Below are positions 23,008 through 62,522 of a stretch of 64,000 bases of DNA, in pieces (within the stretch, counting starts at the first letter, position 1; every line of letters starts with the position of its first letter). Source of the DNA: an uncultured Candidatus Saccharibacteria bacterium. Its GTDB lineage: Bacteria; Patescibacteriota; Minisyncoccia; Phycocordibacterales; Zambryskibacteraceae. A program made the translations under genes and the position numbers. The DNA lies in NCBI GenBank assembly GCA_964357635.1, contig CAYHLZ010000002.1:513-64512 (forward strand), in the 5' to 3' direction. Below the pieces are notes generated by a model. The model searched no databases. It was not told the DNA's origin and saw only the letters and a program-made list of their open reading frames with translations.

Positions 23008-23008
23008 A

Positions 23009-23665: not shown

Positions 23666-23672
23666 GCCTCAA

Positions 23673-24104
23673 TTATACCTTATCCTCGGTGTTTTCCGTT
23701 GTAGGATTAACGTTTTCTTTAATATCTAGGCTCCAACTAAGATCTCTAAGCTTTGATTCCGATAGTTTGGGTACATAGACTTGGTCTAAAGGTTTTGCAT
23801 CTCTTGGTCCGGCAACTGGCTTCTTCTCTTCCTTCTTCCAGAGATAGAGCTTGTTGGTCAAGGTGTATTTAACAAAAGCTTCTACTACGTTTATAAACGG
23901 TTTGCCGTTGATTTTGTAAAACGCCAATGCTCCAGCGAAGGCAAGTATGGGTAATGCAATTAAAATCGCTAAAAATTTTGGTAAAAGAATGAACAAAACG
24001 ACAGCAATACCAGCTCCACCAGCAACATAAATAAATTGCTTAAAGGTCATAGGGCCAAAAATCTTGTCTTCAATCTCTATAAATTGTGGTACTTGAAAGC
24101 GCAT
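23673..24104 (-). CDS. PrgI/VirB3-like small membrane protein
   Basis: 'MRFQVPQFIEIEDKIFGPMTFKQFIYVAGG' followed by two TM helices; sits just upstream of VirB4 as in Gram-positive T4SS. Confidence 0.55.
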   Translation of the reverse strand: MRFQVPQFIEIEDKIFGPMTFKQFIYVAGGAGIAVVLFILLPKFLAILIALPILAFAGALAFYKINGKPFINVVEAFVKYTLTNKLYLWKKEEKKPVAGPRDAKPLDQVYVPKLSESKLRDLSWSLDIKENVNPTTENTEDKV

Positions 24105-24113
24105 AAATTTATT

Positions 24114-24647
24114 TTACACTAACGGCTCTCTATACGGATCCTTTCCTTCTCCATATCTATAATCTGGCAAAGACGTCTTCGTTTCTTTTGGTTTCGGCGG
24201 TTCTCCGCCCGACTCCAGCCCGACAAAGTCATTCTGGCGGGGAACGACTTCAGTCGTTCGGGCGGGCTCTACATGTGGCACGCTGTGCGCCACCTCACCC
24301 TCTTCTACCATGGGCAGGTTATCACCAGAAACTTTTTTCTCCCCAATACTTTTTTCCACAATTGGACCAAGAATTTTCTCAGCGACAGAGTCTCCAATTT
24401 TGTTGGCTGTTTCTTGGGACACACTAACTGCCCGTATAATGTTTTGTACAAAATCATCCGGGTTCTCAAACGCATATAGAACAAACATAGTTTCCTGTTC
24501 AAGAGAAACTATTTGTTCGGGGTCTAAAGCATTACTTTTACCAATTTCCTCTACCAACGCTTTCCAAGGCAGGGCACTAATTGCCTGTTGCAGATTGGAG
24601 GGCAACTTATCAAACTGTTCTTTTATAAGTTTTTCTTCTTCGTTCAT
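24114..24647 (-). CDS. Hypothetical acidic cytoplasmic protein in the T4SS-like operon
   Basis: 177-aa ORF overlapping the upstream gene by 4 nt; no known motif. Confidence 0.45.
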   Translation of the reverse strand: MNEEEKLIKEQFDKLPSNLQQAISALPWKALVEEIGKSNALDPEQIVSLEQETMFVLYAFENPDDFVQNIIRAVSVSQETANKIGDSVAEKILGPIVEKSIGEKKVSGDNLPMVEEGEVAHSVPHVEPARTTEVVPRQNDFVGLESGGEPPKPKETKTSLPDYRYGEGKDPYREPLV

Positions 24648-26830
24648 GGTGTAGATGTTGTTCCTCCGGAAGGTGGTGGGGGTGTTGATGGTGGAGTTGC
24701 TTCTGGCGTTTCTTCTTCAGGCAAATCTCCTGATTCTTTGGCAACATCTTTATATGCCTCGATTAATTTGTCTTTTTTACTCTTTCCTGTTCTTATTCGA
24801 GCTGCCGCAGCATAGTTATAACCAGCAAGTTTTGCCCAAGGGGATCTTTCCACCATATCTGCATATTTACCTTTTCGTATTTCTGCCGCTGGTTGTATTT
24901 CCTTCAGGCTTTCTATTTGTTTGTCATAAGCAGCGGATATTATCTTTGTGTCTTCCTCTATTTTTTCTCTTGCCCTAATCGTCTCTTTCTTTAATGTCTT
25001 AAGTTTTTCTCTTTCAATGTCCAATTCTTTTAACTTTTCTGTTTTGACTCCAAAGTCAGCTGTTTCTAGTTCTCCTTCTAGTTTAGATATGGCATCAGAT
25101 GATGCTTTTTCTTTTGCTTCAGTCGCCCTCAATTGCTCTTTATTTTTTTCTTCCTTTTTCTTTATATCCGCCTGTTTGTTTGTTTCCGCTTCCTGTCTTT
25201 TTTTCTTTATCTCCTCTTTGTTACCCAACAGATTATCAAGTTTTTGTTTAGCCTGAAGCGCCTGTGGCGAAGTTTCTCCAAATTTTGTTTTTGCGTTATC
25301 ATATTCAGCTTTTGCCTTAGCCCTTGCTTTATCTGATGGGGCATATGATTCCGCCACCTTTGCTGCTTTTTCAGATTGTGCTTTTCTGTATCCAGAAAAA
25401 CCATCTTTAGTACCCTTGAACACTTTAGAATCAGCATCAAGAACACCTCCCAATCCGCCAGGAGCATTTCTTGCATCATAGCTTGCTGACCCACCCTTTC
25501 TTCCTGCCCAAAGAGCAAGTCTTGCACTTCGACTACCCTCAGCAGCTTTTCCTTTAAAGTACTCGCTTTCAGATACTGCGGTTGCTGCTCTACCAACCGT
25601 TTGTCTACCAGCAAACGCCGCTGTTCCGACAACAGCACCAGTCAAGAATTTGGTTGCGTTCGTTACATTTGAACCAGCCTTGTTTGCCCACGATTTGGCG
25701 ATACTAAGAGCAGCAAGGAGAAAGACAATCACAATCATAAAGTTCATAAACATAGCAAACGCTCCACTGGAAAGGGCAACTATCTCCTGCCCCCGCTCAC
25801 CTACAGCCGCAAGAGCGCCAAACTCGGTAACGGCACCTCCCGCCGAACCCAAAGAGGTCCTAATACCCCTTAGAACCTCAACCGCAATCCAAAGAATCAT
25901 AAAAAATATAGGGGCAAAAAACGCTTGCCCCACCAGAGTTTCTTTCCACTTATCTGCTGCTCCGCGTAGTGCCGGTAAAACAAAGGCAATAAAAGCTATA
26001 GGAGAAAGAATTAATACCAAAATTAAAACCACATAACGCACAATAAGCATGATTGCCATAGAGAAGAAGACAAAGGCGGAAATGACAAGCATGATAGAGC
26101 CCATCATAGTTATAGTGAGTATGGTTCCATTGCCGAGAGTGCCTCCGCTAAAGCTGTAAAGACTTTGCAAATTTAATTGTTGCATAAAAGCGTTTGAAAG
26201 ACCGCGTGATGACAGGGCGGTTGTGAGGTCAGTTAGAGTTCCGGAAGGTATGATTAGATCGTGGAAAAAGAGAGCCAATATATTGGCGGCATCAATGACC
26301 AGTTTGGTGAAGAAGAGACTGAAGTTTATAAGTATGGCAACGATGATGACGTTAACAATTAGTTTCTTGGTATCGCTTCCTACTCCCAAGATGGTTCGTA
26401 TCGCTGCATACAGGAGGATAAATATAAAACCCATGTTGGCGAGGTCACGGACGGCATCCCATGCATTATTTATGGCGGTTTCGTTAGCAGCATAGTTGTC
26501 AGACATGCTGATGACTGTGAAATAGACCACTGCATTTAAAACAACTCCGGCCAGGCCTGTCAAAAATCCCATAAACTGAAGGATTGACTCTGCCAAGGGA
26601 ATGACAACCCATGACATTATTTCGCACCCAAAATCAAACACCTCTGGACACAGTCCCTCCGATGATGCCCCTGACGGTTGGTCAGGTATACAACCGGGCT
26701 GAGGATCGACAGAGCACGGTGGTGGGGCTTGAGCCAATGTTGTTTGAGGAGCAATAAATCCACTTGTAGTAAAAACAATTACAAGAACGAAAAATAAAGC
26801 CGAAAATTTTTTCCAATACTTTTTCATCAA
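24644..26830 (-). CDS. VirB6/TrbL-like polytopic membrane protein with a long C-terminal K/E-rich coiled-coil and Pro-rich tail
   Basis: Signal peptide, Cys-rich extracellular segment (CSVDPQPGCIPD...CPEVFDFGCE), at least six TM helices, then about 250 aa of lysine/glutamate-rich repeats ending TPPSTPPPPSGGTTSTP. Confidence 0.55.
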   Translation of the reverse strand: MMKKYWKKFSALFFVLVIVFTTSGFIAPQTTLAQAPPPCSVDPQPGCIPDQPSGASSEGLCPEVFDFGCEIMSWVVIPLAESILQFMGFLTGLAGVVLNAVVYFTVISMSDNYAANETAINNAWDAVRDLANMGFIFILLYAAIRTILGVGSDTKKLIVNVIIVAILINFSLFFTKLVIDAANILALFFHDLIIPSGTLTDLTTALSSRGLSNAFMQQLNLQSLYSFSGGTLGNGTILTITMMGSIMLVISAFVFFSMAIMLIVRYVVLILVLILSPIAFIAFVLPALRGAADKWKETLVGQAFFAPIFFMILWIAVEVLRGIRTSLGSAGGAVTEFGALAAVGERGQEIVALSSGAFAMFMNFMIVIVFLLAALSIAKSWANKAGSNVTNATKFLTGAVVGTAAFAGRQTVGRAATAVSESEYFKGKAAEGSRSARLALWAGRKGGSASYDARNAPGGLGGVLDADSKVFKGTKDGFSGYRKAQSEKAAKVAESYAPSDKARAKAKAEYDNAKTKFGETSPQALQAKQKLDNLLGNKEEIKKKRQEAETNKQADIKKKEEKNKEQLRATEAKEKASSDAISKLEGELETADFGVKTEKLKELDIEREKLKTLKKETIRAREKIEEDTKIISAAYDKQIESLKEIQPAAEIRKGKYADMVERSPWAKLAGYNYAAAARIRTGKSKKDKLIEAYKDVAKESGDLPEEETPEATPPSTPPPPSGGTTSTP

Positions 26831-26833
26831 TAA

Positions 26834-28273
26834 TTATCTTTGAACAGTGACATATTGTGTGGTCGCACCATTTCCGTTAGAACAAGTGAGAATGAAGGTC
26901 ATTATAGGGTCTGTTACTCGCACGGACTCTCCTCCACTAAGAGCCTTAGGACCACTCCAACCCCCAGAGGCTGTGCAGGAAGTAGCGTTGGTAGCTGTCC
27001 AGTCAAGCGAAGCGATGGTAAAGAACGGAAGTTCCAGACGCTCAGCACTAAAGGTAACTACAGGGAGCGCTCCTCCGCCCCCACCTCCGAAACCTCCTCC
27101 AGGGACGGCGACATTAACGGAACGAGAAGTCGGTCCATAAGTATTTGTGCATGTAATAGAATATGTCTGACTTGCCGTTAAACTTGGAGTTAACTCTGTT
27201 CCACTTAGTGCTCTGGGACCACTCCAGCCACCGGATGCGACACAGTAGCTGGCATTGGTGGAAGACCAGGTTATGGTTGCTGTGCCGTTAAGTGCCACTG
27301 TGGTTGGGAAAGCATTGAGAGTCACCGTGGGTGCCAGAGGGTTGCTACCCACTGGTGGTGGAACACCCCCACCTCCACCTCCACCTCCACCTCCACCCCC
27401 ACCACTTAAGAGTCCTTGGGCACCAAAGACAAATCTTTGCAGGAGTTGACCGATGAGCGCGCTCACAAGCTCGTCAAACTCGTCTGCCAACTCAAGCTGT
27501 CTCACGCCAGTTCCTAAAACATTTTCAAGTTGTTTCTCAATTACTACACCAGGTGTTTGGGCATCACCCCAATCTAGACATGTGTTTGTGCCGTCAGTAC
27601 TTCGCCTTTCACACGGAGCGAATGTTAAGAAACCACTGCTCCAACTAAGTTGTTCTTTCTGAAGACCCAAGGCCTCTCTAAGTCGGGAGTTAAGTTCAAT
27701 CCGAGCTTCAACATACGACCCATACGGGTTATTGGCCCTGTTTTGTGTCATGGAAAACCATCCGTCCCATCCTCCTTGGTCAAAATCATCGTAGAAACCT
27801 TCAATATTTCCAACTACGTCAGACAAAGTACATTGAAATTGATAGTCTGACGAACCGATTCCTCCGCTGTTATAGGAATTCCTAAGAGATAATCTAATTT
27901 GAGTTTGAAAAGGTGAGCAAAGAAAGTTAAGATCAGTACCGTCGATAAACTCTCCAGCAAGCCCATCAGCAAGGTTGGTGAAAAACTGTTCCGGATTTCT
28001 TACAAAGGCGGGGCTCCCTTCAAAACCTTCATTTATCCACTCAATAGTGGAGTTCAAAATGCTTTCTATCAGGGTTCTGGCAAGAGTTATCGCGACAAGG
28101 TCAAGAGTTAGTCCGGGGACAAAGTATCCGAACGCGGTTATGCCCACCTCTTTTACAGTATTTGCTTGGTCCACAGTGGGGATTCCATATTGCGCCCCGG
28201 TCTTAGTTGGTAGGATAGGAACAAAGAGTATTACGATTAGCAGGAGGGCCAAAATGCGATTTTTATAATTCAT
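26834..28273 (-). CDS. Secreted protein with poly-Gly linkers and two Ig-like repeats (shared with the protein at 50063)
   Basis: Signal peptide; 'GGGGGGGGGGGGG' tract; repeats 'TNASYCVASGGWSGPRALSG' and 'TNATSCTASGGWSGPKALSG'. Confidence 0.55.
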   Translation of the reverse strand: MNYKNRILALLLIVILFVPILPTKTGAQYGIPTVDQANTVKEVGITAFGYFVPGLTLDLVAITLARTLIESILNSTIEWINEGFEGSPAFVRNPEQFFTNLADGLAGEFIDGTDLNFLCSPFQTQIRLSLRNSYNSGGIGSSDYQFQCTLSDVVGNIEGFYDDFDQGGWDGWFSMTQNRANNPYGSYVEARIELNSRLREALGLQKEQLSWSSGFLTFAPCERRSTDGTNTCLDWGDAQTPGVVIEKQLENVLGTGVRQLELADEFDELVSALIGQLLQRFVFGAQGLLSGGGGGGGGGGGGGVPPPVGSNPLAPTVTLNAFPTTVALNGTATITWSSTNASYCVASGGWSGPRALSGTELTPSLTASQTYSITCTNTYGPTSRSVNVAVPGGGFGGGGGGALPVVTFSAERLELPFFTIASLDWTATNATSCTASGGWSGPKALSGGESVRVTDPIMTFILTCSNGNGATTQYVTVQR

Positions 28274-29064
28274 ATATTACTGTTAAACATTATACCATTC
28301 GTGATAAGCACACTCTGAATATTTGTGAGAATATCTGATTCTAACTTAGTATTTTTCGCATAGTGATTCAGAGCGGCGTATGCTTTCGCTGGGTTTTTGG
28401 AACTGTCACTAACTAGTTTCAACGCCTCGGCATTTTCTAAGTAGTTATTTATAAGATCAAGATGATAAGAAGATAGAGAAACCGGCACTCCCACCAAGAG
28501 AAGCTCACTTGCCGCTGCCTGGAAGAACTTAGAAGTGGCTGACATGAATGAAGAGAAAGCAGGACTCGAAATATCTGAAAAATCGCGACCAGAAGCTTGG
28601 GCTGCCACCAAATTTTTATACTTACTGCGGATTGCCGTTAAACTTGCGCCATATGCCGCCATATTTTCTTCGTTATCGGGTACTACTATAACTTGATTTA
28701 AAAGGACTTTTGGTGCGGACAACTTAAAGCTTAGGATATCTTCGGCGTATTTATCGGCAAGGTTTAAGATATTTTCTCCAGAGATCTGACCCTGGGACTT
28801 AAGTGACATGTAGTCGGTAAAAATTTGCCTGCTTAAGAGTTCTTCTTGTGAAAGAGTAGTGGTGGAAAAAGCTCTCGTGGGTGTCGTAGAAGAACTTAAA
28901 AAGTCTTTCAAAAAGGCGTCGTCGGATGCAAACTCTAGAGGAGCTTGAACAGAGACCAAGGTAGCGGAATAAGGAGGAATTTTTATAAATCTAAACCACA
29001 GTGCCCCACCGATAAGAGCAAGAGACAAGAAAAGGGCGCCGATAAGACGAATTGACGGCATCAT
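28270..29064 (-). CDS. Membrane-anchored hypothetical protein (possible VirB8-like bitopic component); first gene of the operon
   Basis: N-terminal TM 'LIGALFLSLALIGGALWF', about 230-aa periplasmic-type domain; no motif recognised. Confidence 0.4.
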   Translation of the reverse strand: MMPSIRLIGALFLSLALIGGALWFRFIKIPPYSATLVSVQAPLEFASDDAFLKDFLSSSTTPTRAFSTTTLSQEELLSRQIFTDYMSLKSQGQISGENILNLADKYAEDILSFKLSAPKVLLNQVIVVPDNEENMAAYGASLTAIRSKYKNLVAAQASGRDFSDISSPAFSSFMSATSKFFQAAASELLLVGVPVSLSSYHLDLINNYLENAEALKLVSDSSKNPAKAYAALNHYAKNTKLESDILTNIQSVLITNGIMFNSNI

Positions 29065-29120: not shown

Positions 29121-30104
29121 ATGCGAAGCCTCCTTATTCTTACCACCTTCTCCTTAGTGCTTGCTCTCGGCTTGTTTAGTTCTACGACAAAGGCAGAAAT
29201 CTTCACCTCAAACCTCACTGTAGGAAGTAGAGGTGTTGAGGTTTCGGCACTTCAGCAAATTCTTGTATCTGAAGGATATTTGGTTATGCCGACAGGCGTT
29301 TCTTATGGCTACTTTGGACCACTTACAAAATCAGCGGTAGCAATGTGGCAGTCAGCCAATGGAGTCTTGCCCACCTTGGGCTACTTTGGTCCAATTTCCC
29401 GAGCAACCTTATCAGCAAAAACATCTGTCAAGAATCCCGAACCTCCGACTCAGCCGACCATGCCCGTAGAACCGCCGTCAACGCCAGTTTCGGATTTGTC
29501 TTCCGGCATTTCGGCAAATTCGGACACACCGTTTGCTTTGGGCATGAGAGCAAATCGCATCCTATTTTTCCGAGCATCACCACTGGAAGTAAAACCCGGG
29601 GATATAGTTACTCTTGATGGTTCTGGATTTAGTAAAACTTCAAACAAAGTTTATTTTAGTGGTGGCAATGCAGTCGTAGCCACTTCTACCAATGGTACGG
29701 TTATGAATGTTGTTGTACCTCCAGGTCTCTCAAACGGAGAACACGAGCTTACTGTAGAAAATGTTTTGGGTTCTTCCGCCAATCCAGATTTAAAAATTAT
29801 AATTAGAGTAACAGACAACCCACAGCCACCACCACAAATCACAAGCGCATCAATCTCCGGCGATACAGTCACTCTTATCGGTACTGGGTTTACTTCTTCC
29901 AACAATCTTTCCACCACCTTTGGCGACAACCCAAGCTCAATTTTGTCAAACGGGACTACTCTAACTTTTCGCATCACCGATCTTTCTATGTATGAGAAGA
30001 TTAAACAATTTACCCAAGGCAAGTATCAAACTAGTCTTTGGATTTACATCTACAATGAACACGGTGCTAGTAGAGAGCCTTATCAATTGAACGTAAATAT
30101 ATGA
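29121..30104 (+). CDS. Secreted protein with a peptidoglycan-binding domain (PG_binding_1-like) and IPT/TIG-like repeats
   Basis: Signal peptide; 'GSRGVEVSALQQILVSEGYL...GYFGPLTKSAVAMWQSANGV' is PGBD-like; two 'G..VTL.G.GF' beta-sandwich repeats. Confidence 0.55.
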   Translation: MRSLLILTTFSLVLALGLFSSTTKAEIFTSNLTVGSRGVEVSALQQILVSEGYLVMPTGVSYGYFGPLTKSAVAMWQSANGVLPTLGYFGPISRATLSAKTSVKNPEPPTQPTMPVEPPSTPVSDLSSGISANSDTPFALGMRANRILFFRASPLEVKPGDIVTLDGSGFSKTSNKVYFSGGNAVVATSTNGTVMNVVVPPGLSNGEHELTVENVLGSSANPDLKIIIRVTDNPQPPPQITSASISGDTVTLIGTGFTSSNNLSTTFGDNPSSILSNGTTLTFRITDLSMYEKIKQFTQGKYQTSLWIYIYNEHGASREPYQLNVNI

Positions 30105-46087: not shown

Positions 46088-46162
46088 TGGTGCCCCCAGC
46101 AGGAATCGAACCCACATCACCTGTTCCGAAGACAGGCACTTTATCCATTAAGCTATGGGGGC
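46088..46162 (-). tRNA. tRNA-Arg (anticodon TCG), CCA encoded
   Basis: Reverse complement GCCCCCATAGCTTAATGGATAAAGTGCCTGTCTTCGGAACAGGTGATGTGGGTTCGATTCCTGCTGGGGGCACCA folds as a cloverleaf; anticodon loop CTTCGGA. Confidence 0.8.
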
Positions 46163-46192
46163 GTTGAATTTATCGTACAAGAGATTTATCTG

Positions 46193-46263
46193 TGCGACTA
46201 GGGAGAATCGAACTCCCATCTCGTCCTTGGCAAGGACGCATTCTACCACTAAACCATAGTCGC
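46193..46263 (-). tRNA. tRNA-Gly (anticodon GCC)
   Basis: Reverse complement GCGACTATGGTTTAGTGGTAGAATGCGTCCTTGCCAAGGACGAGATGGGAGTTCGATTCTCCCTAGTCGCA; anticodon loop TTGCCAA. Confidence 0.8.
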
Positions 46264-46343
46264 AAGTGAAGAGATAATAACTTATTTGGGGAAAAAAATC
46301 GAGATTTTGAAATCACATCTTCGCGTGATAGGATGGACGATTA

Positions 46344-46369
46344 CGGGCTGTATGAGTACATCAGCCCGA
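46344..46369 (+). other. tRNA-Pro acceptor-stem minihelix (internally deleted tRNA-Pro-like element), copy 1
   Basis: CGGGCTG-TATGAGTACAT-CAGCCCG-A: acceptor stem and discriminator identical to the neighbouring tRNA-Pro genes, with the body replaced by an 11-nt loop. Confidence 0.55.
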
Positions 46370-46416
46370 GCATTCAGAACGATAAGTTATGCTAGCATAA
46401 CTTCTGTTCTTCATTA

Positions 46417-46487
46417 CGGGCTGTAGTACAGCGGTAGTATACACGCTTCGGGAGTGTGAGACCCGAGTTCGATTCTCGGCAGCCCGA
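46417..46487 (+). tRNA. tRNA-Pro (anticodon CGG)
   Basis: C1-G72 acceptor CGGGCTG/CAGCCCG (bacterial tRNA-Pro hallmark); anticodon stem-loop CACGC-TTCGGGA-GTGTG; T-arm CCGAGTTCGATTCTCGG. Confidence 0.8.
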
Positions 46488-46528
46488 TGCCAAATAAAGT
46501 GTGTTAGCATAATTTCTGTTCCTAACTA

Positions 46529-46599
46529 CGGGCCGTAGTATATCGGTAGTATGCATGCTTTGGGAGCATGAGGGCCGAGTTCGATTCTCGGCGGCCCGA
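46529..46599 (+). tRNA. tRNA-Pro (anticodon TGG)
   Basis: CGGGCCG...CGGCCCG acceptor; anticodon loop TTTGGGA; same T-arm as the other Pro copies. Confidence 0.8.
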
Positions 46600-46616
46600 A
46601 AGAACGTTTCTCACTA

Positions 46617-46642
46617 CGGGCTGTATGATTACATCAGCCCGA
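46617..46642 (+). other. tRNA-Pro acceptor-stem minihelix, copy 2
   Basis: CGGGCTG-TATGATTACAT-CAGCCCG-A; preceded by the same leader (TTCTCACTA) as the tRNA-Pro(GGG) gene. Confidence 0.55.
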
Positions 46643-46689
46643 GCGCTCGAAGCCCGTGCCCATGTAAACATGGTCACGACTTCTCACTA

Positions 46690-46760
46690 CGGGCTGTAGT
46701 ATAGCGGTAGTATTTGCCCATGGGGTGGGTAAGGCCCGGGTTCAATTCCCGGCAGCCCGA
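46690..46760 (+). tRNA. tRNA-Pro (anticodon GGG)
   Basis: CGGGCTG/CAGCCCG acceptor; anticodon stem-loop TGCCC-ATGGGGT-GGGTA; T-arm CCCGGGTTCAATTCCCGG. Confidence 0.75.
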
Positions 46761-46769
46761 AAGTAAGTT

Positions 46770-46843
46770 GCGGGATTAGTTTAGTGGTAAAACGACAGTT
46801 TTCCAAACTGTAGTTGGGAGTTCGATTCCCCCATCCCGCACCA
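46770..46843 (+). tRNA. tRNA-Gly (anticodon TCC), CCA encoded
   Basis: GCGGGAT...ATCCCGCACCA; anticodon stem-loop ACAGT-TTTCCAA-ACTGT. Confidence 0.8.
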
Positions 46844-48649: not shown

Positions 48650-49196
48650 TACAATATATTAAATAAGTTTCATATGAAACGTATAAGAGTATGAAATGGC
48701 TATAATTAAGGACATTTAAGTATTATGCCCTTTAAATATATGTCTTTTAATACCCACTTTCCACATAATTATCCACAGATTACCTAATTTATGGTCTAAT
48801 CGTCTTTAAAATAAAGACTTTTTTACTTTTGGCCATATTTGTTTGATAATCAATAAAAGACTTTTTCTAAGACATTGAAACAAAAAACCGCCACGGGTTT
48901 CCGCAGCGGTTTCCCCGCCGAAGCGGAGTGAAAGATCATTCCAGAGAAGAGGTCGGGCTTACAGAATGCACGAGACCAAAAATAAAAAAAGTTGGGGGTT
49001 CGTCATCCTTATCCGAACCACTAAACCAGAATCATCTTCCGGTAGTTGGAACGGCCTCCCATGAACTATACTCGAACTCAAATCTCAATTAGAGAACCAA
49101 GAATATCTGTCCGAGCGTCTGCAAGTATTGTACTTTATAAAGGACAAATTTAGAAGTTGAAATCTGGGGATAAGAGTGTCCTTTTGTTTTATGGCT

Positions 49197-50062: not shown

Positions 50063-51187
50063 ATGGCAATTGTAAACATAAAGGGGGTTATTAAAATACT
50101 TGGTATCGGACTTGTCTCTCTTTGCTTTTTTCCTTCAATAAGTTATGCAGATTTTAATTGGGTTCAGGTTGGCTCCAATAGTGGTAACGGATTTGGGGAA
50201 TGTGTTTCTGAAAATATATCATGTGATTTTGGTGTCCCAATAGCCTCTTGTCTTCACAGTAACAACATAAGTCCTACATACACCACAACGCATGCGTGTG
50301 ATGCTGCGAATTTTGGTAATTATATAACCGAGGCGAATGGCACTCTTTGTTTCCCCGGCGAAGACACAGGATCGTGGGGCGAGGAATATTATGAATGTCA
50401 GTGGATTGGACCTGTGACTTTGAATGTTTCCATAAATTCTGGGCAGGGGACAATTTCCGCACCCGGCATTAGCTGTCCAGGGGACTGTAGTCAGAATTTT
50501 ACATACGGAGATTGGGTGACAATTCTCGCGACACCAAATAGCGCTGGCGGTTTTAGTTTTGGTTCTTGGAGTGGAGCATGTCTCGGACAAACATCAAGTT
50601 GTTCTATACAAATGAATGGTAGTCAAAACACAAGTGTTAGTTTTAATGCGCCGTCGGCGCCAACTGTTAGTTTAAACGCAAGTCCCAATCCAGTTGTTTA
50701 CAACACCGCAAGTTCTCTTTCTTGGTCCTCCACCAACGCAACATCTTGCACAGCCTCTGGGGGTTGGAATGGTCCTAAGGCTCTTAGTGGAACTCAATCA
50801 ACCGGCAACTTAACTTCTAACCAAACCTACACTCTTGACTGTATCGGTCCAGGGGGTTCTGCCAATCGTTCTGTAACAGTGGCAGTTTCGCCGAGTAGCG
50901 CAATGTCTGTATCTTGTGTCGGTAGTCCTTCTGTTGCATTACTCGGACAAAACATAACTTGGACTGCCAGCGTAGATTCTGGTGGTGTGCCACCCTTCAC
51001 TTACTCATGGAGTGGGACAAATATTCCCACAAGCCCTGCACCTACGACTAACCCGTATGTAAAAAGCTACAGCACTATTGGAGAAAAAACTGCTACCGTC
51101 ACAGTGACGGGAGGGAATTCGGCCGAAGCCACTTGTTCTCCCGCAAGAGTTCAGATTAATTTTGACCCGGACTTTGAAGAATTTTAA
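50063..51187 (+). CDS. Secreted Cys-rich protein with an Ig-like repeat, a PKD-like domain and a conserved C-terminal tail ...VQINFDPDFEEF
   Basis: Signal peptide; 'STNATSCTASGGWNGPKALSG' repeat; PKD-like 'FTYSWSG...YVKSYSTIGEKTATVTVT'. Confidence 0.6.
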   Translation: MAIVNIKGVIKILGIGLVSLCFFPSISYADFNWVQVGSNSGNGFGECVSENISCDFGVPIASCLHSNNISPTYTTTHACDAANFGNYITEANGTLCFPGEDTGSWGEEYYECQWIGPVTLNVSINSGQGTISAPGISCPGDCSQNFTYGDWVTILATPNSAGGFSFGSWSGACLGQTSSCSIQMNGSQNTSVSFNAPSAPTVSLNASPNPVVYNTASSLSWSSTNATSCTASGGWNGPKALSGTQSTGNLTSNQTYTLDCIGPGGSANRSVTVAVSPSSAMSVSCVGSPSVALLGQNITWTASVDSGGVPPFTYSWSGTNIPTSPAPTTNPYVKSYSTIGEKTATVTVTGGNSAEATCSPARVQINFDPDFEEF

Positions 51188-51199
51188 TAATCTAAAAAT

Positions 51200-53245
51200 A
51201 TGACAGATACACTACAAATAAATTGGAAGGTAAAAATAATTTTTCTTGCTATCCTTGTGACCTTGGGTTTATTTTCTCTAACAAACACTTCTTTTGCCGG
51301 AACATGGGGAGCTCCAGTACAGCACCCAAGCTATCCCACATCTGGAGCACAATGCGAACCGTTCCCCATCGGTCCGGGAAGTCCGTTTACAACAAATAGT
51401 TCGTGTATGACTGGAGCTGTACATGACTACGGCACAGTAAGCAATAGCACAACTCAGTGCGGCGGTTTTTCTAGTGAACCTGCGCAAGTTATGGCGAATA
51501 ACTCCATAAAGCGACAAACGTGTAATCCGTCTCCAAACAATCCGCCTAATGCCAATGCCGGTATTGACCGCTCAGTCACTCAACCAGCTAGCTCTGTTGT
51601 AATAAGCGGCGCATCAGCGAGCGACCCAGATGGCGGTGTCTCCTCTACAGTTTGGTCTTTTACAGGCGGGCCCGGACCGAACCCAAGCATAACAAACAGC
51701 ACAACTCTCACCCCCACCTTCTCAAACATGACTATGGATGGCGTCTACACTTTCCGTTTGCGGGTTACAGACACGGGCGGTCTGGTTACTACCGACACTA
51801 TGACGGTCACAGTAAACTTGGCAGTTACACAATGTAATGATGCCCAAGAAAATGACTCCCCAACTGATAATCGTACAGACTCAGGAGACTGGGGCTGTCA
51901 CTCAGATGGCGATGCTACAAACAGCTTCACCTATGTTCCCACGGACAACAGTGAAAGCAATACTTACTGCCTTTCTCCAGGGTGGGATACTCCGAGCGAT
52001 TCAGCTTACGATGGAGACATAGACGGGCCAGCTGCTAATTATTGGTGTAGCAACCAAGCTCCTGGTGGACCATGTCCCTCTAATTTGTCCGGCGGACCAA
52101 CTTCAGTGAGTGCAAAGGGGAGCGCCACAGTATGTTGTTATGTGGACTCAGTTGACTCTTATACTGGATATCTAAGACAGTGTGCCGGCTCATCACCTAC
52201 ACCAACCCCCGCTATTTGTGGGTCAGATAATGGGCAAACAATTTCCTCAGAACCAGTTGGTGGATCGTCAGCCTGTTACAGTGGAACTTATGTAAATAGC
52301 CCCGCAGATAATTCGACCACATGGAACTGGACTTGCGATGGTTTAAATAACGGCACCGACGCACCCTGTTCAGCAACCAAACTTACATACACTCTTACTA
52401 CTGCAGTTAGCCCTGGCGGTTCTGCTGGAACTGTTTCTGCACCAGGTATAACTTGTGGGGCAGATTGTAGTGAAGTTTTTACAGCTGGCGCCCAACCGAC
52501 GCTTATGGCAACGCCGACGGATCCTGGCTACGACTTTGTCAATTGGACTGGTGGGGATTGCGACGGACTTACCACAACCTCATGTCTAGTCACCTTGAAC
52601 AGTAATCAAAGCATAACTGCTAACTTTGTTCCAGAACCCCCAGCATTTGATTACAGTCTTACGCCCAACACTCAAGTAAATACAACTCAAAATTCGACCG
52701 CCCAGAAGGTTGTGAGCAAAAATCTTATTTCTGGCTCTGGATCAGTTACTTTATCTGTCGGAGCCCTACCTACAGGAGTTTCTGTCTCTGGTATATCTGG
52801 CCAAGGCGCACCTCTTCCTAACTCCTCAACCATAACTTTTAGTATCTCCCCAACCGCCACAGTTGGGAATCACCCGATAACCATCACCGGGAATCCACTA
52901 AACAAACAACTAACCTTCAATCTGAATATTTCTCCCAGCACCAGTCTTTCAGTCTCGTGCTCTGGAAATCCTCCAACAGCGTTACTTGGTCAGAACGTAA
53001 CTTGGACAGCTGTTCCAAGTGGAGGTACTCCGCCGTACTTCTACTCTTGGAGTGGCGATAATATTCCGACGAGCCCTGCTCCCACCGGTAGCACTTATGT
53101 AAAAAGTTACAGCACTGTTGGTTTAAAGAGAGCCAATGTTACGGCCACTGATAGCAGCCTTCCTACTGCCCAAACAACCCCATCCTGCGCTCCGGCCGCC
53201 GCAGAGGTACAGATTAACTTTGACCCCTCATTTGAGGAATTTTAA
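51200..53245 (+). CDS. Large secreted protein with PKD-like domains; paralogous C-terminal module ending ...VQINFDPSFEEF
   Basis: Signal peptide; PKD-like 'SASDPDGGVSSTVWSFTGGPG...GVYTFRLRVTDTGG'; the C-terminal roughly 100 aa align with the end of the preceding gene product. Confidence 0.6.
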   Translation: MTDTLQINWKVKIIFLAILVTLGLFSLTNTSFAGTWGAPVQHPSYPTSGAQCEPFPIGPGSPFTTNSSCMTGAVHDYGTVSNSTTQCGGFSSEPAQVMANNSIKRQTCNPSPNNPPNANAGIDRSVTQPASSVVISGASASDPDGGVSSTVWSFTGGPGPNPSITNSTTLTPTFSNMTMDGVYTFRLRVTDTGGLVTTDTMTVTVNLAVTQCNDAQENDSPTDNRTDSGDWGCHSDGDATNSFTYVPTDNSESNTYCLSPGWDTPSDSAYDGDIDGPAANYWCSNQAPGGPCPSNLSGGPTSVSAKGSATVCCYVDSVDSYTGYLRQCAGSSPTPTPAICGSDNGQTISSEPVGGSSACYSGTYVNSPADNSTTWNWTCDGLNNGTDAPCSATKLTYTLTTAVSPGGSAGTVSAPGITCGADCSEVFTAGAQPTLMATPTDPGYDFVNWTGGDCDGLTTTSCLVTLNSNQSITANFVPEPPAFDYSLTPNTQVNTTQNSTAQKVVSKNLISGSGSVTLSVGALPTGVSVSGISGQGAPLPNSSTITFSISPTATVGNHPITITGNPLNKQLTFNLNISPSTSLSVSCSGNPPTALLGQNVTWTAVPSGGTPPYFYSWSGDNIPTSPAPTGSTYVKSYSTVGLKRANVTATDSSLPTAQTTPSCAPAAAEVQINFDPSFEEF

Positions 53246-53272: not shown

Positions 53273-53812
53273 ATGCCACCAACACAAACACAAAACCCAA
53301 CACCAGTACAAGGACAAACACCAAACAAAAAAACCTTTTTGGCGATACTTGTTATTATGGCGCTTCTCGCCCTAGGATATTTCTTGTCTCAAAAGTATTC
53401 TCTAGACAAAGGCCCAACTTCGCCAGAGGAGACCAATGAAGCCCTTCCCATGGAAGTGGTCGTGGAACACACACAAGCAGTCAACGGAGTACTGCCCACA
53501 CCAAAAGATTTCCCCAAAGACATACCAGTTGAGAAATTTGACATCACAGAAAGCGCGACAACGGTCTACCCAAGCATAGGTGCCAAGCAGTTAAATATTA
53601 GTTATCAAAGCAACAAGTCATTAGATGTTAAATATAAAGAATATAAAGACTACATGACCAAAGCAGGCTACACTCTCTCTGAAGGCGGTACCGGCGCTAA
53701 CCTAAAAGCTATCTTTGGTACCAAAGAAAAAGAGAATTTGTCTGTAGTTGTAAGCTCTGCGGGGGGTGGTTCTCTTGTTCAGGTTGCTTATCTTCTGAAA
53801 TCTAGCAAATAG
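53273..53812 (+). CDS. Membrane-anchored hypothetical protein
   Basis: Pro/Thr/Gln-rich N-terminus then TM 'FLAILVIMALLALGYFL'. Confidence 0.4.
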   Translation: MPPTQTQNPTPVQGQTPNKKTFLAILVIMALLALGYFLSQKYSLDKGPTSPEETNEALPMEVVVEHTQAVNGVLPTPKDFPKDIPVEKFDITESATTVYPSIGAKQLNISYQSNKSLDVKYKEYKDYMTKAGYTLSEGGTGANLKAIFGTKEKENLSVVVSSAGGGSLVQVAYLLKSSK

Positions 53813-55673: not shown

Positions 55674-56885
55674 ATGACTCTCTACAAATATAAAGCGAAG
55701 GATAAGGATGGCAACATCTACGAACGCAGTCTTGATGTAAAAAACCGTTTTGACATCTATAACGTTATTCGTGAGGAGGGCGGAAGCGTGGTCTCTATCC
55801 AGGAAGTCAAAAACTTTTTGTCTGCCATTGCCCTTGACCGGCTTTTCAGTGGCATACCAACACACCAAAAAATTACCTTCGCCAAAAACCTTGGGTTAAT
55901 GATGAATGCCGGCTTGTCAGTAACGAGAGCTCTTGCCGTTATGGGCAAACAGACCAAGAGTAAACCACTCAAGAAACTACTTTCCGACCTTGAAGCCGAT
56001 GTAAGTCACGGCCAGACACTCTCAGAGTCGTTGCTCAAACACCCAAAAGCATTTTCTCCTCTCTTTGTGTCAATGATAAAAGCAGGTGAAGAGTCTGGTA
56101 ACGTCTCTGGCGCTCTCGCCATTGTTTCTAGTCAAATGGAGAAAACCTATCTTCTGACGAAGAAGGTGCGTGGCGCACTAATTTATCCTTCTGTCATTAT
56201 TACCGTAATGATAGTTCTTGCCATTCTTCTTCTTATTTTCATGGTGCCAACTCTTACTGCCACTTTTGAAGGTCTTGGGGTCAAACTGCCTCTTCCGACA
56301 CGTGTTCTTATAGCTGCCAGCGATTTTCTTATTGAAAATACTCTTGCTGTCCTTGTTGGGATAGGTTTTCTTATAACGGTATCAATTATGTTTTTAAAAA
56401 GCAGGGTTGGTAGAAATTTTTCTGATGCTGTCTTTATCCGGCTTCCTCTTATTGGCGAGATGGTCAAGGAGTTTGAATCTGCTCGCAGTGCTCGCACCCT
56501 ATCTTCTCTACTTTCTGCGGGTGTAGAAATTATTGTTGCGATTGATGTCACTATTGATGTTTTACAAAACCACTTATACAAAGATGTGCTTAAACGCGCC
56601 CGCACCGCCATTGAAAAGGGCGAGCCGATGTCTAGAGTGTTTGTTGAGAACGACAAACTTTATCCGATATTTGTTGGAGAAATGGTTGCGGTGGGCGAGG
56701 AGACAGGCAAGATTTCAGAAATGCTTATGGGTGTAGCAAATTATTATGAAGAAGAGGTTGACCAGAAAACTAAGGACCTCTCCACCATCATTGAGCCCAT
56801 ATTAATGATTATTATTGGTGTTGGAGTAGGAATCTTTGCTGTCTCAATGCTTGGTCCGACATACTCTCTCGTAGATTATATTTAA
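55674..56885 (+). CDS. pilC: Type IV pilus inner-membrane platform protein PilC (GspF family)
   Basis: Two GspF repeats, three TM helices, 403 aa. Confidence 0.8.
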   Translation: MTLYKYKAKDKDGNIYERSLDVKNRFDIYNVIREEGGSVVSIQEVKNFLSAIALDRLFSGIPTHQKITFAKNLGLMMNAGLSVTRALAVMGKQTKSKPLKKLLSDLEADVSHGQTLSESLLKHPKAFSPLFVSMIKAGEESGNVSGALAIVSSQMEKTYLLTKKVRGALIYPSVIITVMIVLAILLLIFMVPTLTATFEGLGVKLPLPTRVLIAASDFLIENTLAVLVGIGFLITVSIMFLKSRVGRNFSDAVFIRLPLIGEMVKEFESARSARTLSSLLSAGVEIIVAIDVTIDVLQNHLYKDVLKRARTAIEKGEPMSRVFVENDKLYPIFVGEMVAVGEETGKISEMLMGVANYYEEEVDQKTKDLSTIIEPILMIIIGVGVGIFAVSMLGPTYSLVDYI

Positions 56886-56891: not shown

Positions 56892-57362
56892 ATGAAACAA
56901 AGAGGCTTCACTCTCATAGAAATTGTAATTGCGACCGCAATTTTTCTTCTTTTTGCTATCGGGGTCTACCAAGCCTATACCACCATATTTAATGCCATTG
57001 CCAATGCGCACAACAGAGCTCTCGCCACCGACCTTGCCAATGTGAGATTTGAAGTTATCAAGAACCTACCGTACTCAAGCGTTGGTACAGTCGGCGGAAC
57101 CCCCAGCGGACTAATTGCCGTGTCAGAGACTGTTACGAGTGACAATGTTTCATTTACTGTTGCGACAACAATCATGAACGTTGACGATCCTTTTGACGGA
57201 CTTCTTGGTGGTGGAGATATTTTTCCTGCTGACTATAAACTTGTTGAAATAAGTATCACTTGTAACGGCTGTAAGAACCTTCCTCCAGTAGTGATTACAG
57301 GAAGAGTCGCCCCAAAAAATCTGGAAACTAGTCTTAAATGGATAAAATCAAATATCACATGA
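56892..57362 (+). CDS. Prepilin-type pilin (type IV pilin or pseudopilin)
   Basis: Class III signal 'MKQRG|FTLIEIVIATAIFLL' (Gly-1, Glu+5). Confidence 0.75.
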   Translation: MKQRGFTLIEIVIATAIFLLFAIGVYQAYTTIFNAIANAHNRALATDLANVRFEVIKNLPYSSVGTVGGTPSGLIAVSETVTSDNVSFTVATTIMNVDDPFDGLLGGGDIFPADYKLVEISITCNGCKNLPPVVITGRVAPKNLETSLKWIKSNIT

Positions 57363-57964
57363 AAAAAAACGGCTACAGTCTCGTAGAATTTGTTTTCGCG
57401 GTGGTTATGGCAACAGTTATTGTTTTTATCGTCACTATCTTTGCTAAAAATGCCATAAATTTTAACTCCTCGTCGCAGTCAAGCATGAACGCCATCTTTG
57501 AAAGTAGAAAAATACTAAGCACCATGGTCTCGGAACTTCGTTCAACCGCTCCTTCTGCGATGGGTTCTTATTCTATTGAGTCTGCCGCTACTAGTTCAAT
57601 CGTTTTTTTTGCTGATGTTAATTCAGACGATATTTCAGACCGCATTCGTTATTTTCTAGATCCGAACACGCGCGCTGTTCAGAGAGGCGTAATACTCGCA
57701 ACAGGTGAACCACCTGGTTATACCGTAGCTGAAACATTTTCAACCATTGTTTCTGACATAGGGAACGGCGCTTCAACAGCACTTTTTGATTATTATGACG
57801 GCAATTATGCAGGCACCACAAGCCCATTATCAATACCGGTAAATATTGCTTCCATCAGAATGGTTAAAATCACCATTAAGGTTGAACGAGACCCAAACAA
57901 GCCATCTGAACTTATGACATTTTCATCTCAAGCGTCTCTAAGAAACCTTAAAGATAATTTATGA
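57359..57964 (+). CDS. Prepilin-type pilin-like protein
   Basis: 'MKKNG|YSLVEFVFAVVMATVIVFI' prepilin leader; the ATG at 57359 overlaps the previous stop. Confidence 0.65.
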   Translation: MKKNGYSLVEFVFAVVMATVIVFIVTIFAKNAINFNSSSQSSMNAIFESRKILSTMVSELRSTAPSAMGSYSIESAATSSIVFFADVNSDDISDRIRYFLDPNTRAVQRGVILATGEPPGYTVAETFSTIVSDIGNGASTALFDYYDGNYAGTTSPLSIPVNIASIRMVKITIKVERDPNKPSELMTFSSQASLRNLKDNL

Positions 57965-59433
57965 GAAAAAAAACTTTACAGAGCGACGGATATCTTTTGT
58001 TAGAAGTGCTGGTCTTTGGTGCGGCAGCAGTAGTCGTTATCATCGGGCTCATTGCTTTTGCTGCCACCAACGTCAAGATTGGCCGACGTGTTGTATTGTC
58101 AGAACAAGCTTTTCAGATGGCTGAAGCAGGTCTTGAATATTATCGTTGGCACTTAGCACACGATCCAACGGACTATACAGATGACACAGGACTCCCTGGT
58201 CCTTATGTTAAAAATTTCTATGATAGAAACGGAGTTCTCTTGGGTACCTTCACCCTCACGATAACTCCTCCTCCACTTGGTTCAACTCTCGTGACCCTAG
58301 AGTCAGTCGGTACTTCCGCAGTAGATCCTGCCGTTTCAAGAACCCTTGTTTCTAGACTTGCTGTGCCTTCTTTTGCCAATTTTGCTGCTGTTGCTAATGC
58401 TATTATGCGTTTCGGAAGTGGCACAGAAGTGTTTGGTCCAATTCATTCCAACAACGGTGTACGCTTTGATGGTCTTACGCACAATCTTGTTACCAGTTTT
58501 CTATCAAACTATGACGACCCAATACATACAGGTAGTAATGAATTCGCCGTGCATACGCACGTTAATCCTCCTCCAGGTAGTGGACTCAATAACAGCTTTC
58601 GTCCCTTAGAAGCTCCGCCAACGAGTCCTGTGCCCTCAAGAACAGATGTCTTTATTGCCGGAAGGTCATTCCCAGCTCCGGAAGTTGATTTTGACACCAT
58701 CACAAACGACTTGGTCCAGATGAAAGCTGATGCGGAATCAGCCGGACTGTATTTCGCCTCCTCAACCCTAAGTGGCTACCGAATTGTGTTGAAAACCGAT
58801 GATACCCTTGATCTTTATAGAGTAAACAGCTTGAGAGCCGTACCAAACAATTGTACTGGTTCTGGAACTGGGTGGGGTTCGTGGACTGCTAGTTCTACAG
58901 ACCAAACATCACTTGGCACTTATCCTTTTCCCGCAAACGGTTTAATTTTTCTTGATGACAATGTCTGGGTTGAAGGAACAATTGACGGGGCACGTCTAAC
59001 CATTGTTGCCGCTCGCATACCAGATGACGATGTCAACCAAAGAAGATCAATGACGATTAATAACGATGTTATGTATACTCACTACGACGGTACGGATGTA
59101 GTTGCTCTCATTGGTCAGAACAATGTTAATGCTGGTCTTTACAGCGAAGATGATTTGAGAATTGACGCCGCACTTGTCGCACAGAACGGCCGAGTCGGTA
59201 GATATAGCTACAGTGATAACGATTGCGCTCCATATAAAAATCGAAATAGCATCACGCTCTATGGCACTATCGTGACTGCTCTACAATACGGTTTTGCCTA
59301 CGGAGATCCTGTTACCAATGGATACTCTTTTAGAAATCTTATCTATGACTCATTCCTACTATATAACCCTCCACCATTTTTCCCGGAAACTGAAGATTTC
59401 CACGAAGTTATTTCTTGGAAAGAAATAGAGTAA
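57961..59433 (+). CDS. Large pilus-associated protein with a pilin-like N-terminus (candidate minor pilin or tip protein)
   Basis: '...QSDG|YLLLEVLVFGAAAVVVIIGL' then 450 aa of beta-rich sequence; overlaps the previous gene by 4 nt. Confidence 0.55.
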   Translation: MRKKTLQSDGYLLLEVLVFGAAAVVVIIGLIAFAATNVKIGRRVVLSEQAFQMAEAGLEYYRWHLAHDPTDYTDDTGLPGPYVKNFYDRNGVLLGTFTLTITPPPLGSTLVTLESVGTSAVDPAVSRTLVSRLAVPSFANFAAVANAIMRFGSGTEVFGPIHSNNGVRFDGLTHNLVTSFLSNYDDPIHTGSNEFAVHTHVNPPPGSGLNNSFRPLEAPPTSPVPSRTDVFIAGRSFPAPEVDFDTITNDLVQMKADAESAGLYFASSTLSGYRIVLKTDDTLDLYRVNSLRAVPNNCTGSGTGWGSWTASSTDQTSLGTYPFPANGLIFLDDNVWVEGTIDGARLTIVAARIPDDDVNQRRSMTINNDVMYTHYDGTDVVALIGQNNVNAGLYSEDDLRIDAALVAQNGRVGRYSYSDNDCAPYKNRNSITLYGTIVTALQYGFAYGDPVTNGYSFRNLIYDSFLLYNPPPFFPETEDFHEVISWKEIE

Positions 59434-61598: not shown

Positions 61599-62522
61599 TT
61601 AGTAGGTGCGTGACTTTACCAGCTGACCGTATTGGTCAAAAAGTTCAATTGTCTCGTATTCTTTGGCCCACATCTCCCAACCATGGCCAAGGAAAATTCG
61701 CCAAGTTTTACCATAGAAATTTTCGTCATTTACATGGTTGGCGATACAAGCGTCGTAACTATAATGACTCTTGATAAACGTTACACAAGCGCTTGAAAGC
61801 GGTTTGCCATTTACACAATTACGACAGATTTCTCCATCTCTATCTCTTGTATCAAACTCCGGTTTCTGGCAACTCGGCATTTTTTCTATAAATTTTCTGC
61901 ACTCGGTATCAAGAGAGCTAACCCCCAACTCATTTTCTGGTTGAGGGCAATTGCGTTTAAGTGCTGGAGTAAATTTGTATTCTTCTAAATTCTCCAAATA
62001 ACCGCTACAGATATTTTCCTTGAAACTTACGATTTTATATGGCGTTTGGGCACCCATTCTACCCGTGGTGATAATCGCTTTTTCGCCTGGTTCAAGCACT
62101 ATATTGTGAAGCACGTTATATCCACTAGGAGATATAAAGAGTGCTGCCCGCCCAATCGTTGCAATGTCGGAAGCAAAGTACTTTAACTGTCCGCCAAGAT
62201 TATAGGCTCGTTTATCTTTTCCATTTTTCAAATACCAATTGGTGATAGTAACAGGTTCTTTTCCTCTGTTGTCTATACTGATGTATTCCTCAAATGACTG
62301 GTAAGCGCGGGATGCGTTACCAGTAGTAAGCGAAATATTTGGCGTATTTGAAGTGCTTGATGACTTTGAGGTAGAAATATTTTGTGTTTTTATACCAGTA
62401 TCATCTTGAGAATTAACTTTGCTTTCTCCAGAGTCGAGTTTATCTCCCAACCTAGACACAAATAAGACAATAAGAACCGCCAAAACTGCGATAACTTGTA
62501 GGGCGCCATTACCTTTCTTCAT
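61599..62522 (-). CDS. Membrane-anchored Ser/Thr-rich, Cys-rich hypothetical protein
   Basis: TM 'LQVIAVLAVLIVLFV', S/T-rich linker, C-terminal domain with 10 Cys. Confidence 0.45.
   Translation of the reverse strand: MKKGNGALQVIAVLAVLIVLFVSRLGDKLDSGESKVNSQDDTGIKTQNISTSKSSSTSNTPNISLTTGNASRAYQSFEEYISIDNRGKEPVTITNWYLKNGKDKRAYNLGGQLKYFASDIATIGRAALFISPSGYNVLHNIVLEPGEKAIITTGRMGAQTPYKIVSFKENICSGYLENLEEYKFTPALKRNCPQPENELGVSSLDTECRKFIEKMPSCQKPEFDTRDRDGEICRNCVNGKPLSSACVTFIKSHYSYDACIANHVNDENFYGKTWRIFLGHGWEMWAKEYETIELFDQYGQLVKSRTY

Follow-up and report, generated by a model that had tools for sequence, protein, structure and literature searches.

The C-terminal surface-sorting signals LPXTG, PEP-CTERM, PEF-CTERM and PGF-CTERM each combine a motif with a transmembrane (TM) helix and a basic tail, and each is served by a dedicated transpeptidase. 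The type IX secretion system (T9SS) is an outer-membrane system of Bacteroidota that involves cleavage by PorU and attachment to anionic lipopolysaccharide (A-LPS). The C-terminal (PDZ) domain of GspC contributes to substrate specificity in some secretion systems. TcpF of Vibrio cholerae and CofJ of enterotoxigenic Escherichia coli (ETEC) carry a ‘type IVb pilus (T4bP) secretion signal’, a terminal peptide that binds a trimeric minor pilin (PMC9565799). Here we describe two adjacent genes in a 64,000-nucleotide (nt) stretch of contig CAYHLZ010000002.1 (the window), which originates from the 0.1-µm fraction of Hainich groundwater. The secreted products of both genes end in VQINFDP(D/S)FEEF-stop. 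This tail resembles T9SS C-terminal domains (CTDs) in logic and T4bP signals in context, and belongs to neither. Its recurrence, and its linkage to the gene of a small membrane protein that we call g179 and to type IV pilus genes, point to a putative docking or sorting tag. The two tailed genes and their parts are as follows:

50063–51187 (+): tailed protein 1, 374 amino acids (aa), from the open reading frame (ORF) list and Pfam; MEK7176958.1 ‘hypothetical protein’ at NCBI. Signal peptide (aa 1–29), Cys-rich N-terminal region, Flg_new_2 (aa 122–193), immunoglobulin (Ig)-like domain (aa ~197–277), PKD-like terminal domain, FEEF tail
51161–51184 (+): tail of protein 1, F-D-P-D-F-E-E-F, then TAA TAA
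51200–53245 (+): tailed protein 2, 681 aa; MEK7176957.1 ‘PKD domain-containing protein’ at NCBI. Signal peptide (aa 1–33), K319L-like PKD domain (aa 120–205), Cys-rich region, Flg_new_2 (aa 409–478), Ig-like domain (aa ~484–578), PKD-like terminal domain (aa ~583–673), FEEF tail
52637–53242 (+): C-terminal module of protein 2 (aa 480–681), two Ig-like beta-sandwich domains plus the tail
53219–53242 (+): tail of protein 2, F-D-P-S-F-E-E-F, then TAA

Protein 1 ends in ...ARVQINFDPDFEEF (also given as ...VQINFDPDFEEF) and protein 2 in ...AEVQINFDPSFEEF (also given as ...VQINFDPSFEEF); both NCBI entries belong to a Patescibacteria metagenome-assembled genome (MAG). The original prediction, made from the letters of the window, described the pair as tandem secreted paralogs whose last ~100 aa align closely, and both points hold. 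The genes are separated by a 12-nt spacer. A BLASTP alignment of their products covers 286 aa at 42% identity (E 3e-47), and identity reaches ~65% in the last ~100 aa. By inspection, signal peptide cleavage falls after SYA29 in protein 1 and SFA33 in protein 2. The mature proteins, both acidic and Ser/Thr-rich, contain 14 and 22 Cys residues, respectively, and beyond the signal peptide neither has a 19-mer at TM level (hydrophobicity of at least 1.6). As predicted, each stops exactly at FEEF. Because no TM segment or basic tail follows, the architecture of LPXTG, PEP-CTERM, PEF-CTERM and PGF-CTERM signals is absent. A six-frame scan of the window for [FYW][DE][DE][FYW]-stop returned these two ORFs only, and their tail codons differ synonymously.

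The PKD-like domains that had been assigned to both proteins stand for protein 2, where aa 120–205 match the Pfam models PF22352 (K319L-like_PKD; 3.7e-16) and PF18911 (6.9e-07), but not for protein 1, whose sole Pfam domain is Flg_new_2. The shared C-terminal ~100 aa have no significant match in Pfam or NCBIfam, the best being a SprB repeat (0.0055) under the cut-off. This terminal domain is PKD-like by profile homology: its profile retrieves thousands of multi-repeat PKD-like proteins, and one homolog, P0164, contains both PF13573 and PF18911.

The tail is not restricted to this pair. Scanning one genome per GTDB species with the back-translated pattern F[D/N]PxFEEF-stop gave 38 loci, in 23 of which (27 matches, ~20 genomes of the Candidate Phyla Radiation, CPR) the match closes a long ORF. 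These 27 in-family matches, compared with ~9 expected at random, place the tail far above chance; the non-family matches are near the chance expectation in number and lie in unrelated ORFs and contexts. The ORFs of the 23 loci share their last ~100 aa, ...SGGTPPFTYSWSGTNIPTSPAP..NPY...YSTIGQKTATVTVTD.D..QATCP...VQINF[DN]PxFEEF. All in-family genomes are CPR MAGs, assigned to Zambryskibacteria, Parcubacteria and Minisyncoccia, with the ‘binchicken’ bins labelled Saccharibacteria. The ~20 species-level genomes, together with many metagenome contigs, hold ~55 non-redundant tailed proteins. Other CPR genomes, where the original prediction had proposed to look, do carry the tail, but the family is limited to a single Parcubacteria/Zambryskibacteria-like clade rather than spread across the CPR.

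A profile search with the terminal domain against 1.84 billion representative proteins separated two classes of match. Multi-repeat PKD-like proteins match over the domain body only, whereas in single-match proteins the last profile position coincides with the exact protein C-terminus, and all of these terminate in P-x-[F/L]-[E/K/Q/R]-E-F-COOH. Over 983 matches, the last profile position was reached by 52 of 54 terminal domains versus 1 of 929 internal repeats. FEEF accounts for 42 of the 53 non-redundant endings, followed by LEEF (5), FKEF (2), FQEF (2), LKEF (1) and FREF (1). Across the same 53 sequences, P(-6), E(-1) and F(0) are 100% conserved, F(-8) 98% and N(-9) 91%, and the remainder of the last 110 aa averages ~67%; position -7 is D in 33 and N in 20. 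A natural variant with F at -7 also occurs, NFFPHFEEF (L068/L069). At the DNA level, the tail codons of 44 distinct sequences use GAA and GAG at ~1:1, all four CCN codons, both TTT and TTC, and all three stop codons. Synonymous sites are thus saturated and stop codons free, which places the constraint on the peptide: the tail is under purifying selection with free synonymous change.

These data also bear on whether the shared ending is a by-product of recent duplication or gene conversion, an explanation that is almost certainly wrong. The adjacency of the two paralogs is the sole point for it. Against it stand the 42% identity of the paralogs, the invariance of the tail in ~55 sequences whose other C-terminal residues fall to 45–60% identity with synonymous change saturated, and the presence of an orthologous tandem pair (387 and 790 aa; L021) in another genome. 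Orthologs and many non-orthologous proteins keep the tail under purifying selection, and it is not tied to this tandem duplication. A constraint at the nucleotide level, such as a ribosome-binding site for the next gene, was rejected because synonymous sites, stop codons, downstream gene and spacing all vary. Phage origin was likewise rejected, as a scan of IMG/VR gave unrelated internal FDPxFEEFW motifs only.

The pattern scan also met three unrelated sets of sequences among its non-family loci: an internal ARF[DN]PPFEEFW in a Verrucomicrobia enzyme (loci including L006, L034, L038 and L002), a common 65-aa ORF ending in HFNPFFEEF in Puniceicoccaceae and Oceanipulchritudo (loci including L018 and L024), and an internal FDP[LH]FEEFW..YPK in phage-like proteins (loci including L075–L077 and L025).

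The original prediction stressed conservation at the extreme C-terminus. The tail is indeed invariant, but the conserved unit is larger, namely ~200 aa that comprise two Ig-like domains plus the tail, or ~290 aa in most members if Flg_new_2 is counted. The first Ig-like domain has the signature FNYSLSNSG...ITVTGSPL.K.T.FNLVV, and the PKD-like domain and the tail follow. Upstream of this module the proteins, which range from 368 to 1333 aa, have completely different heads (Flg_new_2, CARDB, PKD, GBS_Bsp-like, TSP_1, BNR and SdrD_B), among which no enzyme domains were found. An N-terminal signal-type hydrophobic segment is present in 32 of 35 complete sequences and a second TM segment in none of the 35. 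An AlphaFold2 (AF2) model of the protein 2 module consists of two beta-sandwiches with a mean predicted local distance difference test score (pLDDT) of 91.6. Module residues 191–200 (VQINFDPSFE) are placed with a mean pLDDT of 91, residues 195–202 being coil, and the final Glu-Phe with a pLDDT of 61. Foldseek matched the module to generic tandem Ig domains only, and a PDB profile search gave marginal Ig matches only.

Two observations bear on how fold and tail are related. Many related PKD-like proteins finish right after the G strand without a tail, which indicates that the fold does not depend on it. Conversely, P0034 (1047 aa, multi-PKD/CARDB) ends in ...SVTIGLTPHFEEF, that is, T-P-H-FEEF-COOH directly after a different Ig domain, whose counterpart by alignment is the middle domain of protein 1 (E 1e-5). 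The presence of PxFEEF on this other domain makes the tail look portable. The P0034 gene (L074, 8001–11144; GCA_040384205.1, JAWVGZ010000004.1) lies outside the pilus locus in a mobile-looking context, inserted between rplB and rpsS of a ribosomal protein operon, with a Y1 transposase next to it. In P0123, an Ig domain of the type seen in P0034 is followed by the ending ...GTFEEV. At L079, a 172-aa membrane protein (5493–6011) encoded directly upstream of a 1333-aa tailed gene has a further acidic-aromatic C-terminus, ...INYSTDEF, a likeness that may be coincidental; a radical SAM/SPASM gene is nearby.

The gene neighbourhood of the tailed pair in the window runs yraN-like, xth, tailed gene 1, tailed gene 2, g179, pilB, pilC, three pilin-like genes, tpi and pgk. 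The features downstream of the tailed genes are:

53273–53812 (+): g179, found as a conserved partner beside tailed genes; encodes a bitopic membrane protein of 179 aa
53910–55664 (+): PilB/GspE-type assembly ATPase (MshEN + T2SSE)
55674–56885 (+): PilC/GspF platform protein (T2SSF)
56892–59433 (+): three pilin-like/pseudopilin genes of 156, 208 and 490 aa, with G|F/Y-x-L-[IVL]-E, class III type

The first pilin-like gene matches N_methyl (3.6e-08), and the other two were assigned by inspection of their N-termini. No terminator-like sites were found between the first genes of this neighbourhood. A tblastn search with the window proteins recovered the same gene order nearly everywhere among the loci derived from the tail. 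As an independent test, JGI metagenomes were searched with an alignment of g179 homologs, which is free of tail information. This search gave 33 loci, 30 with upstream sequence, and in 30 of 30 an ORF ending in [F/L]EEF-stop finishes 2–160 nt before g179, with pilB following. The PilB proteins of these loci are 80–95% identical to that of the window, and their tailed ORFs range from ~400 to >1000 aa; next to the diverse heads, PilB identity holds at ~85–89%.

Departures from this arrangement occur in both directions. Tailed genes directly abut pilB with no g179 between them at L003, L010, L012, L019 and L030. Elsewhere a tailed gene and g179 occur together without adjacent pil genes, followed by tpi (L032) or by an ABC transporter (L022); L022 (3098–3709) and L032 (CAZUDK01) represent one genome with two pairs of tailed gene and g179, one of them beside an ABC-2 type transporter. 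Among close relatives the spacing between pilB and pilC ranges from a few nt to >3 kb (L047, L045, L048 and others), which indicates that genes have been inserted inside the pilus cluster. A co-occurring sorting enzyme, which the original prediction had put forward as a candidate to look for, did not emerge. The ~55 Pfam-annotated ORFs of the 64-kb window include no sortase, exosortase, rhombosortase, PDZ protein or Ctp-type protease, and no sorting enzyme or PDZ protein was found in the conserved neighbourhood of the tailed genes, where the consistent neighbours are g179 and the type IV pilus cluster.

g179 has a short N-terminal cytoplasmic part, a TM helix (aa 19–42), a Pro-rich linker and an ectodomain (aa ~91–176) of beta-sheet plus helix, and is predicted to adopt an N-in/C-out orientation with a long linker. 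Its homologs have in common the N-in topology, the single TM helix, the Pro-rich linker and the conserved ectodomain, whose motifs are FP..IP.E......ES....Y, KY.EYK.Y and LVQ..YLLK. An AF2 model (pLDDT 79) shows an antiparallel sheet packed by one helix, with weak fold matches to DcrB, TiME, PA1624, YwmB, LppA, PsbP and the DUF1795/Eag chaperones, the last of which use their sheet to hold peptide segments. In the Pfam and NCBIfam libraries used here, g179 had no match at E <= 1 except YusW (0.17), and the PDB profile search gave none; its homologs have weak precomputed matches to PF27226 ‘AF_1845’.

In this setting, the likeness to TcpF and CofJ lies in a Sec-exported, anchorless protein encoded in a type IV pilus operon, and in a short linear peptide at one terminus that is proposed to be recognized (PMC9565799). 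The tailed proteins are both pilus-operon-encoded and Sec-exported. The systems differ in that the T4bP signal is N-terminal in the mature protein, its host is diderm and its binding to pilin has been demonstrated, whereas the present motif, putative in function, is C-terminal, occurs in CPR bacteria and is unrelated in sequence. T9SS CTDs offer a second parallel as conserved C-terminal Ig-like beta-sandwiches without a TM segment that follow unrelated N-terminal cargo and whose extreme C-terminal residues matter. PorU cleavage and A-LPS attachment, however, do not apply to or were not seen for the tailed proteins, and the T9SS CTD models (Por_Secre_tail, type B) gave no match in an NCBIfam scan at E <= 1. 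Sortase and exosortase signals, too, have a conserved motif close to the C-terminus, in surface proteins that are exported by Sec and vary in their passenger regions, but the tailed proteins stop at the motif, with no TM segment and no such enzyme nearby; NCBIfam gave no PEP-CTERM, PEF-CTERM or PGF-CTERM match.

The Sec-type signal peptides of 32 of 35 members exclude a C-terminal signal of the type I secretion system, and no pair of ABC transporter and membrane fusion protein was found at the window locus. g179 recalls GspC as a small, bitopic protein encoded directly upstream of a GspE-type ATPase, a GspF platform protein and pseudopilins; it differs in having no homology region (HR) or PDZ domain, a (weakly) DcrB/PsbP-like fold and no accompanying secretin. 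Ligands of PDZ domains, such as the YxF-COOH ends of outer-membrane proteins recognized by DegS, share with the tail an invariant C-terminal aromatic residue, a free carboxylate and a preceding acidic residue, but neither the window nor the conserved neighbourhood yielded a gene for a PDZ-domain protein. Consistent with the earlier statement that the tail matches no described sorting system, a description of it turned up neither in Pfam or NCBIfam nor in the literature open to searching, which does not exclude that one exists. Literature searches on FEEF and pili, Patescibacteria sorting signals, CPR pili with Ig-like proteins, Zambryskibacteria pili and AF1845 returned nothing relevant.

From its invariance, its terminal position, one case of portability and its operon linkage, we infer that the tail may serve as a recognition tag. 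We tentatively propose that it docks non-covalently to g179, which would tether its carrier to the membrane beside the pilus; recognition in trans and the choice of partner are the conjectural parts of a proposal that we consider possible. The tailed proteins are Sec-exported and without an anchor of their own, each carrying a variable adhesin-module head on a conserved stalk of two Ig-like domains. The tag itself would be modular, consisting of the G-strand ...[VI]-x-F followed by [D/N]-P-x-[F/L]-x-E-F-COOH. The terminal domain is expected to hold the last strand and the F-(D/N)-P-x-F hook, which may offer the invariant Glu-Phe, with its free carboxylate, to a partner. The likeliest partner appears to be g179, encoded immediately downstream, which as a candidate tail receptor could keep the tailed proteins tethered on the cell surface, next to the machinery of the type IV pilus. 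In favour of docking we count the diverse heads, the absence of a second TM segment, the linkage recovered both from the tail and from g179, the persistence of the pair of tailed gene and g179 at loci without pil genes, and the weak likeness of the g179 ectodomain to the peptide-binding DUF1795/Eag proteins.

Several observations weigh against docking to g179. The high AF2 confidence for F-D-P-x-F-E suggests packing of much of the tail against its own domain and speaks for a structural role of these residues. The Foldseek similarity of g179 to other proteins is weak (E 5e-3 to 0.1, TM-score 0.3–0.44), and charge complementarity between g179 and the acidic tail is not supported, the pI of the ectodomain (4.9–9.5) being not consistently basic. 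Some tailed genes have no nearby g179 (L020, L074 and L080), and gene numbers are not 1:1, with two tailed genes and one g179 in the window and one tailed gene and two g179 genes at L007. All loci also belong to one fairly narrow clade (PilB identity of at least 48%), such that shared ancestry contributes to the synteny.

The same gene order could be read as the mark of a pilus-dependent presentation or export signal, in which the Sec-exported protein would dock by its tail to a minor pilin at the tip of the type IV (pseudo)pilus encoded downstream. Extension of the pilus would then carry the protein through the wall and S-layer or display it at the tip, with g179 serving as adaptor in the place that GspC holds, a bitopic protein ahead of ATPase, platform and pseudopilins. 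Most loci do have tailed genes directly upstream of pilB, pilC and the pseudopilins, some without g179. The absence of terminator-like sites in the window, the large 490-aa pilin-like gene and the precedent of a short flexible terminal peptide that hooks a trimeric minor pilin (PMC9565799) all fit as well. We nevertheless consider this reading unlikely, as tailed genes also occur without adjacent pil genes (L020, L022, L032, L074 and L080), the signals described so far sit at the N-terminus and are unrelated to the tail by sequence, g179 matches neither the HR nor the PDZ domain of GspC, and the gene order may come from a common ancestor. A bolder version would make the FEEF tail a linear C-terminal cargo signal of a monoderm-type machine of CPR bacteria that resembles type IV pili (T4P) and the type II secretion system (T2SS). 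The signal would be read by g179 as a GspC-like adaptor, or by a minor pilin, and the (pseudo)pilus would bear or push out hypervariable adhesin heads for contact with host cells; this version strikes us as quite doubtful.

Two further explanations dispense with the pilus. F-(D/N)-P-x-F-E-E-F might fold back on the terminal Ig-like domain as an intramolecular cap, conserved for stability only, and cover a hydrophobic surface that the next domain covers in multi-repeat proteins. Besides the confident AF2 placement of VQINFDPSFE noted above, this is supported by the near-constant association of the tail with the same domain. Internal repeats of related PKD-like proteins also often have N/D-x-P after the G strand, which suggests that part of the motif is a normal linker. 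It is harder to reconcile with the last two residues, which are 100% conserved yet the least confidently placed, with the many related proteins that end after the G strand, with P-x-FEEF on the different Ig domain of P0034, or with a free carboxylate at the exact position in every member, which a cap does not obviously require. We judge it unlikely. Alternatively, the tail might be a processing or covalent-attachment signal, removed by a peptidase or transpeptidase or self-cleaving at (D/N)-P. In the latter case, coupling of the protein to the wall or to a second protein could proceed through a cyclic anhydride or imide, as it does in Asp-Pro ‘clip-and-link’ modules. Nearly all tails have D or N at position -7, directly before the invariant Pro, and these are the two residues that can form a ring with their own backbone; moreover, the tailed proteins have no other anchor. 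Set against this, neither the window nor the conserved neighbourhood encodes a sortase, exosortase, rhombosortase, PDZ protease or anything similar, the tailed proteins have no TM segment that would keep the substrate at the membrane, one natural variant has F at -7, and D/N-P is also a common turn. Such processing appears very doubtful.

Docking to g179 thus remains the proposal that we prefer, and its interest lies in the biology of these organisms. CPR bacteria (Patescibacteria) are thought to be host-attached, with type IV pili and surface proteins as their main suspected contact organs, and we know of no account of how their anchorless secreted proteins stay at the surface. The present analysis defines a compact, invariant tag at the C-terminus, a group of cargo proteins whose adhesin-like heads change fast, and a candidate receptor gene by the pilus genes. 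The tail is well defined and potentially informative on CPR–host attachment, albeit lineage-restricted and putative in function; it offers a practical marker for host-interaction proteins in these CPR genomes, and the hypothesis is directly testable. If pilus machinery reads the tag, the result would bear on the long-standing question of substrate recognition in T2SS and T4P, and if the tailed proteins are pilus cargo, the tail would amount to a recognition code, simple and transplantable, in a secretion/pilus family for which the recognition of substrates is otherwise poorly understood. If the tail is only a structural cap, the finding is a lineage-specific domain variant.

Several other features of the window deserve mention. 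A second T2SSE-family ATPase gene of 567 aa (6566–8269, +) lies ~45 kb from pilB-pilC and could encode a PilT-like or second PilB-like motor. A conjugative type IV secretion system (T4SS)-like cluster (18271–29064, -) sits beside the dnaA/dnaN origin region (14356–17009). It includes T4SS_pilin (19534–20397), a TraG/VirB4-like P-loop ATPase (21136–23007) and PrgI (23673–24104), and several large secreted ORFs without a Pfam match, among them 24644–26830 and 26834–28273. Secreted or membrane proteins with a lamin-tail domain and with TIG/IPT plus PG_binding_1, which are eukaryote-like or wall-binding modules, are encoded at 61599–62522 (-) and 29121–30104 (+). The 548 nt between the yraN-like gene and xth (48650–49196) hold no ORF of at least 80 aa, tRNA or Rfam match. 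Finally, six tRNA genes lie at 46088–46843, three of them consecutive tRNA-Pro genes (CGG, TGG and GGG).

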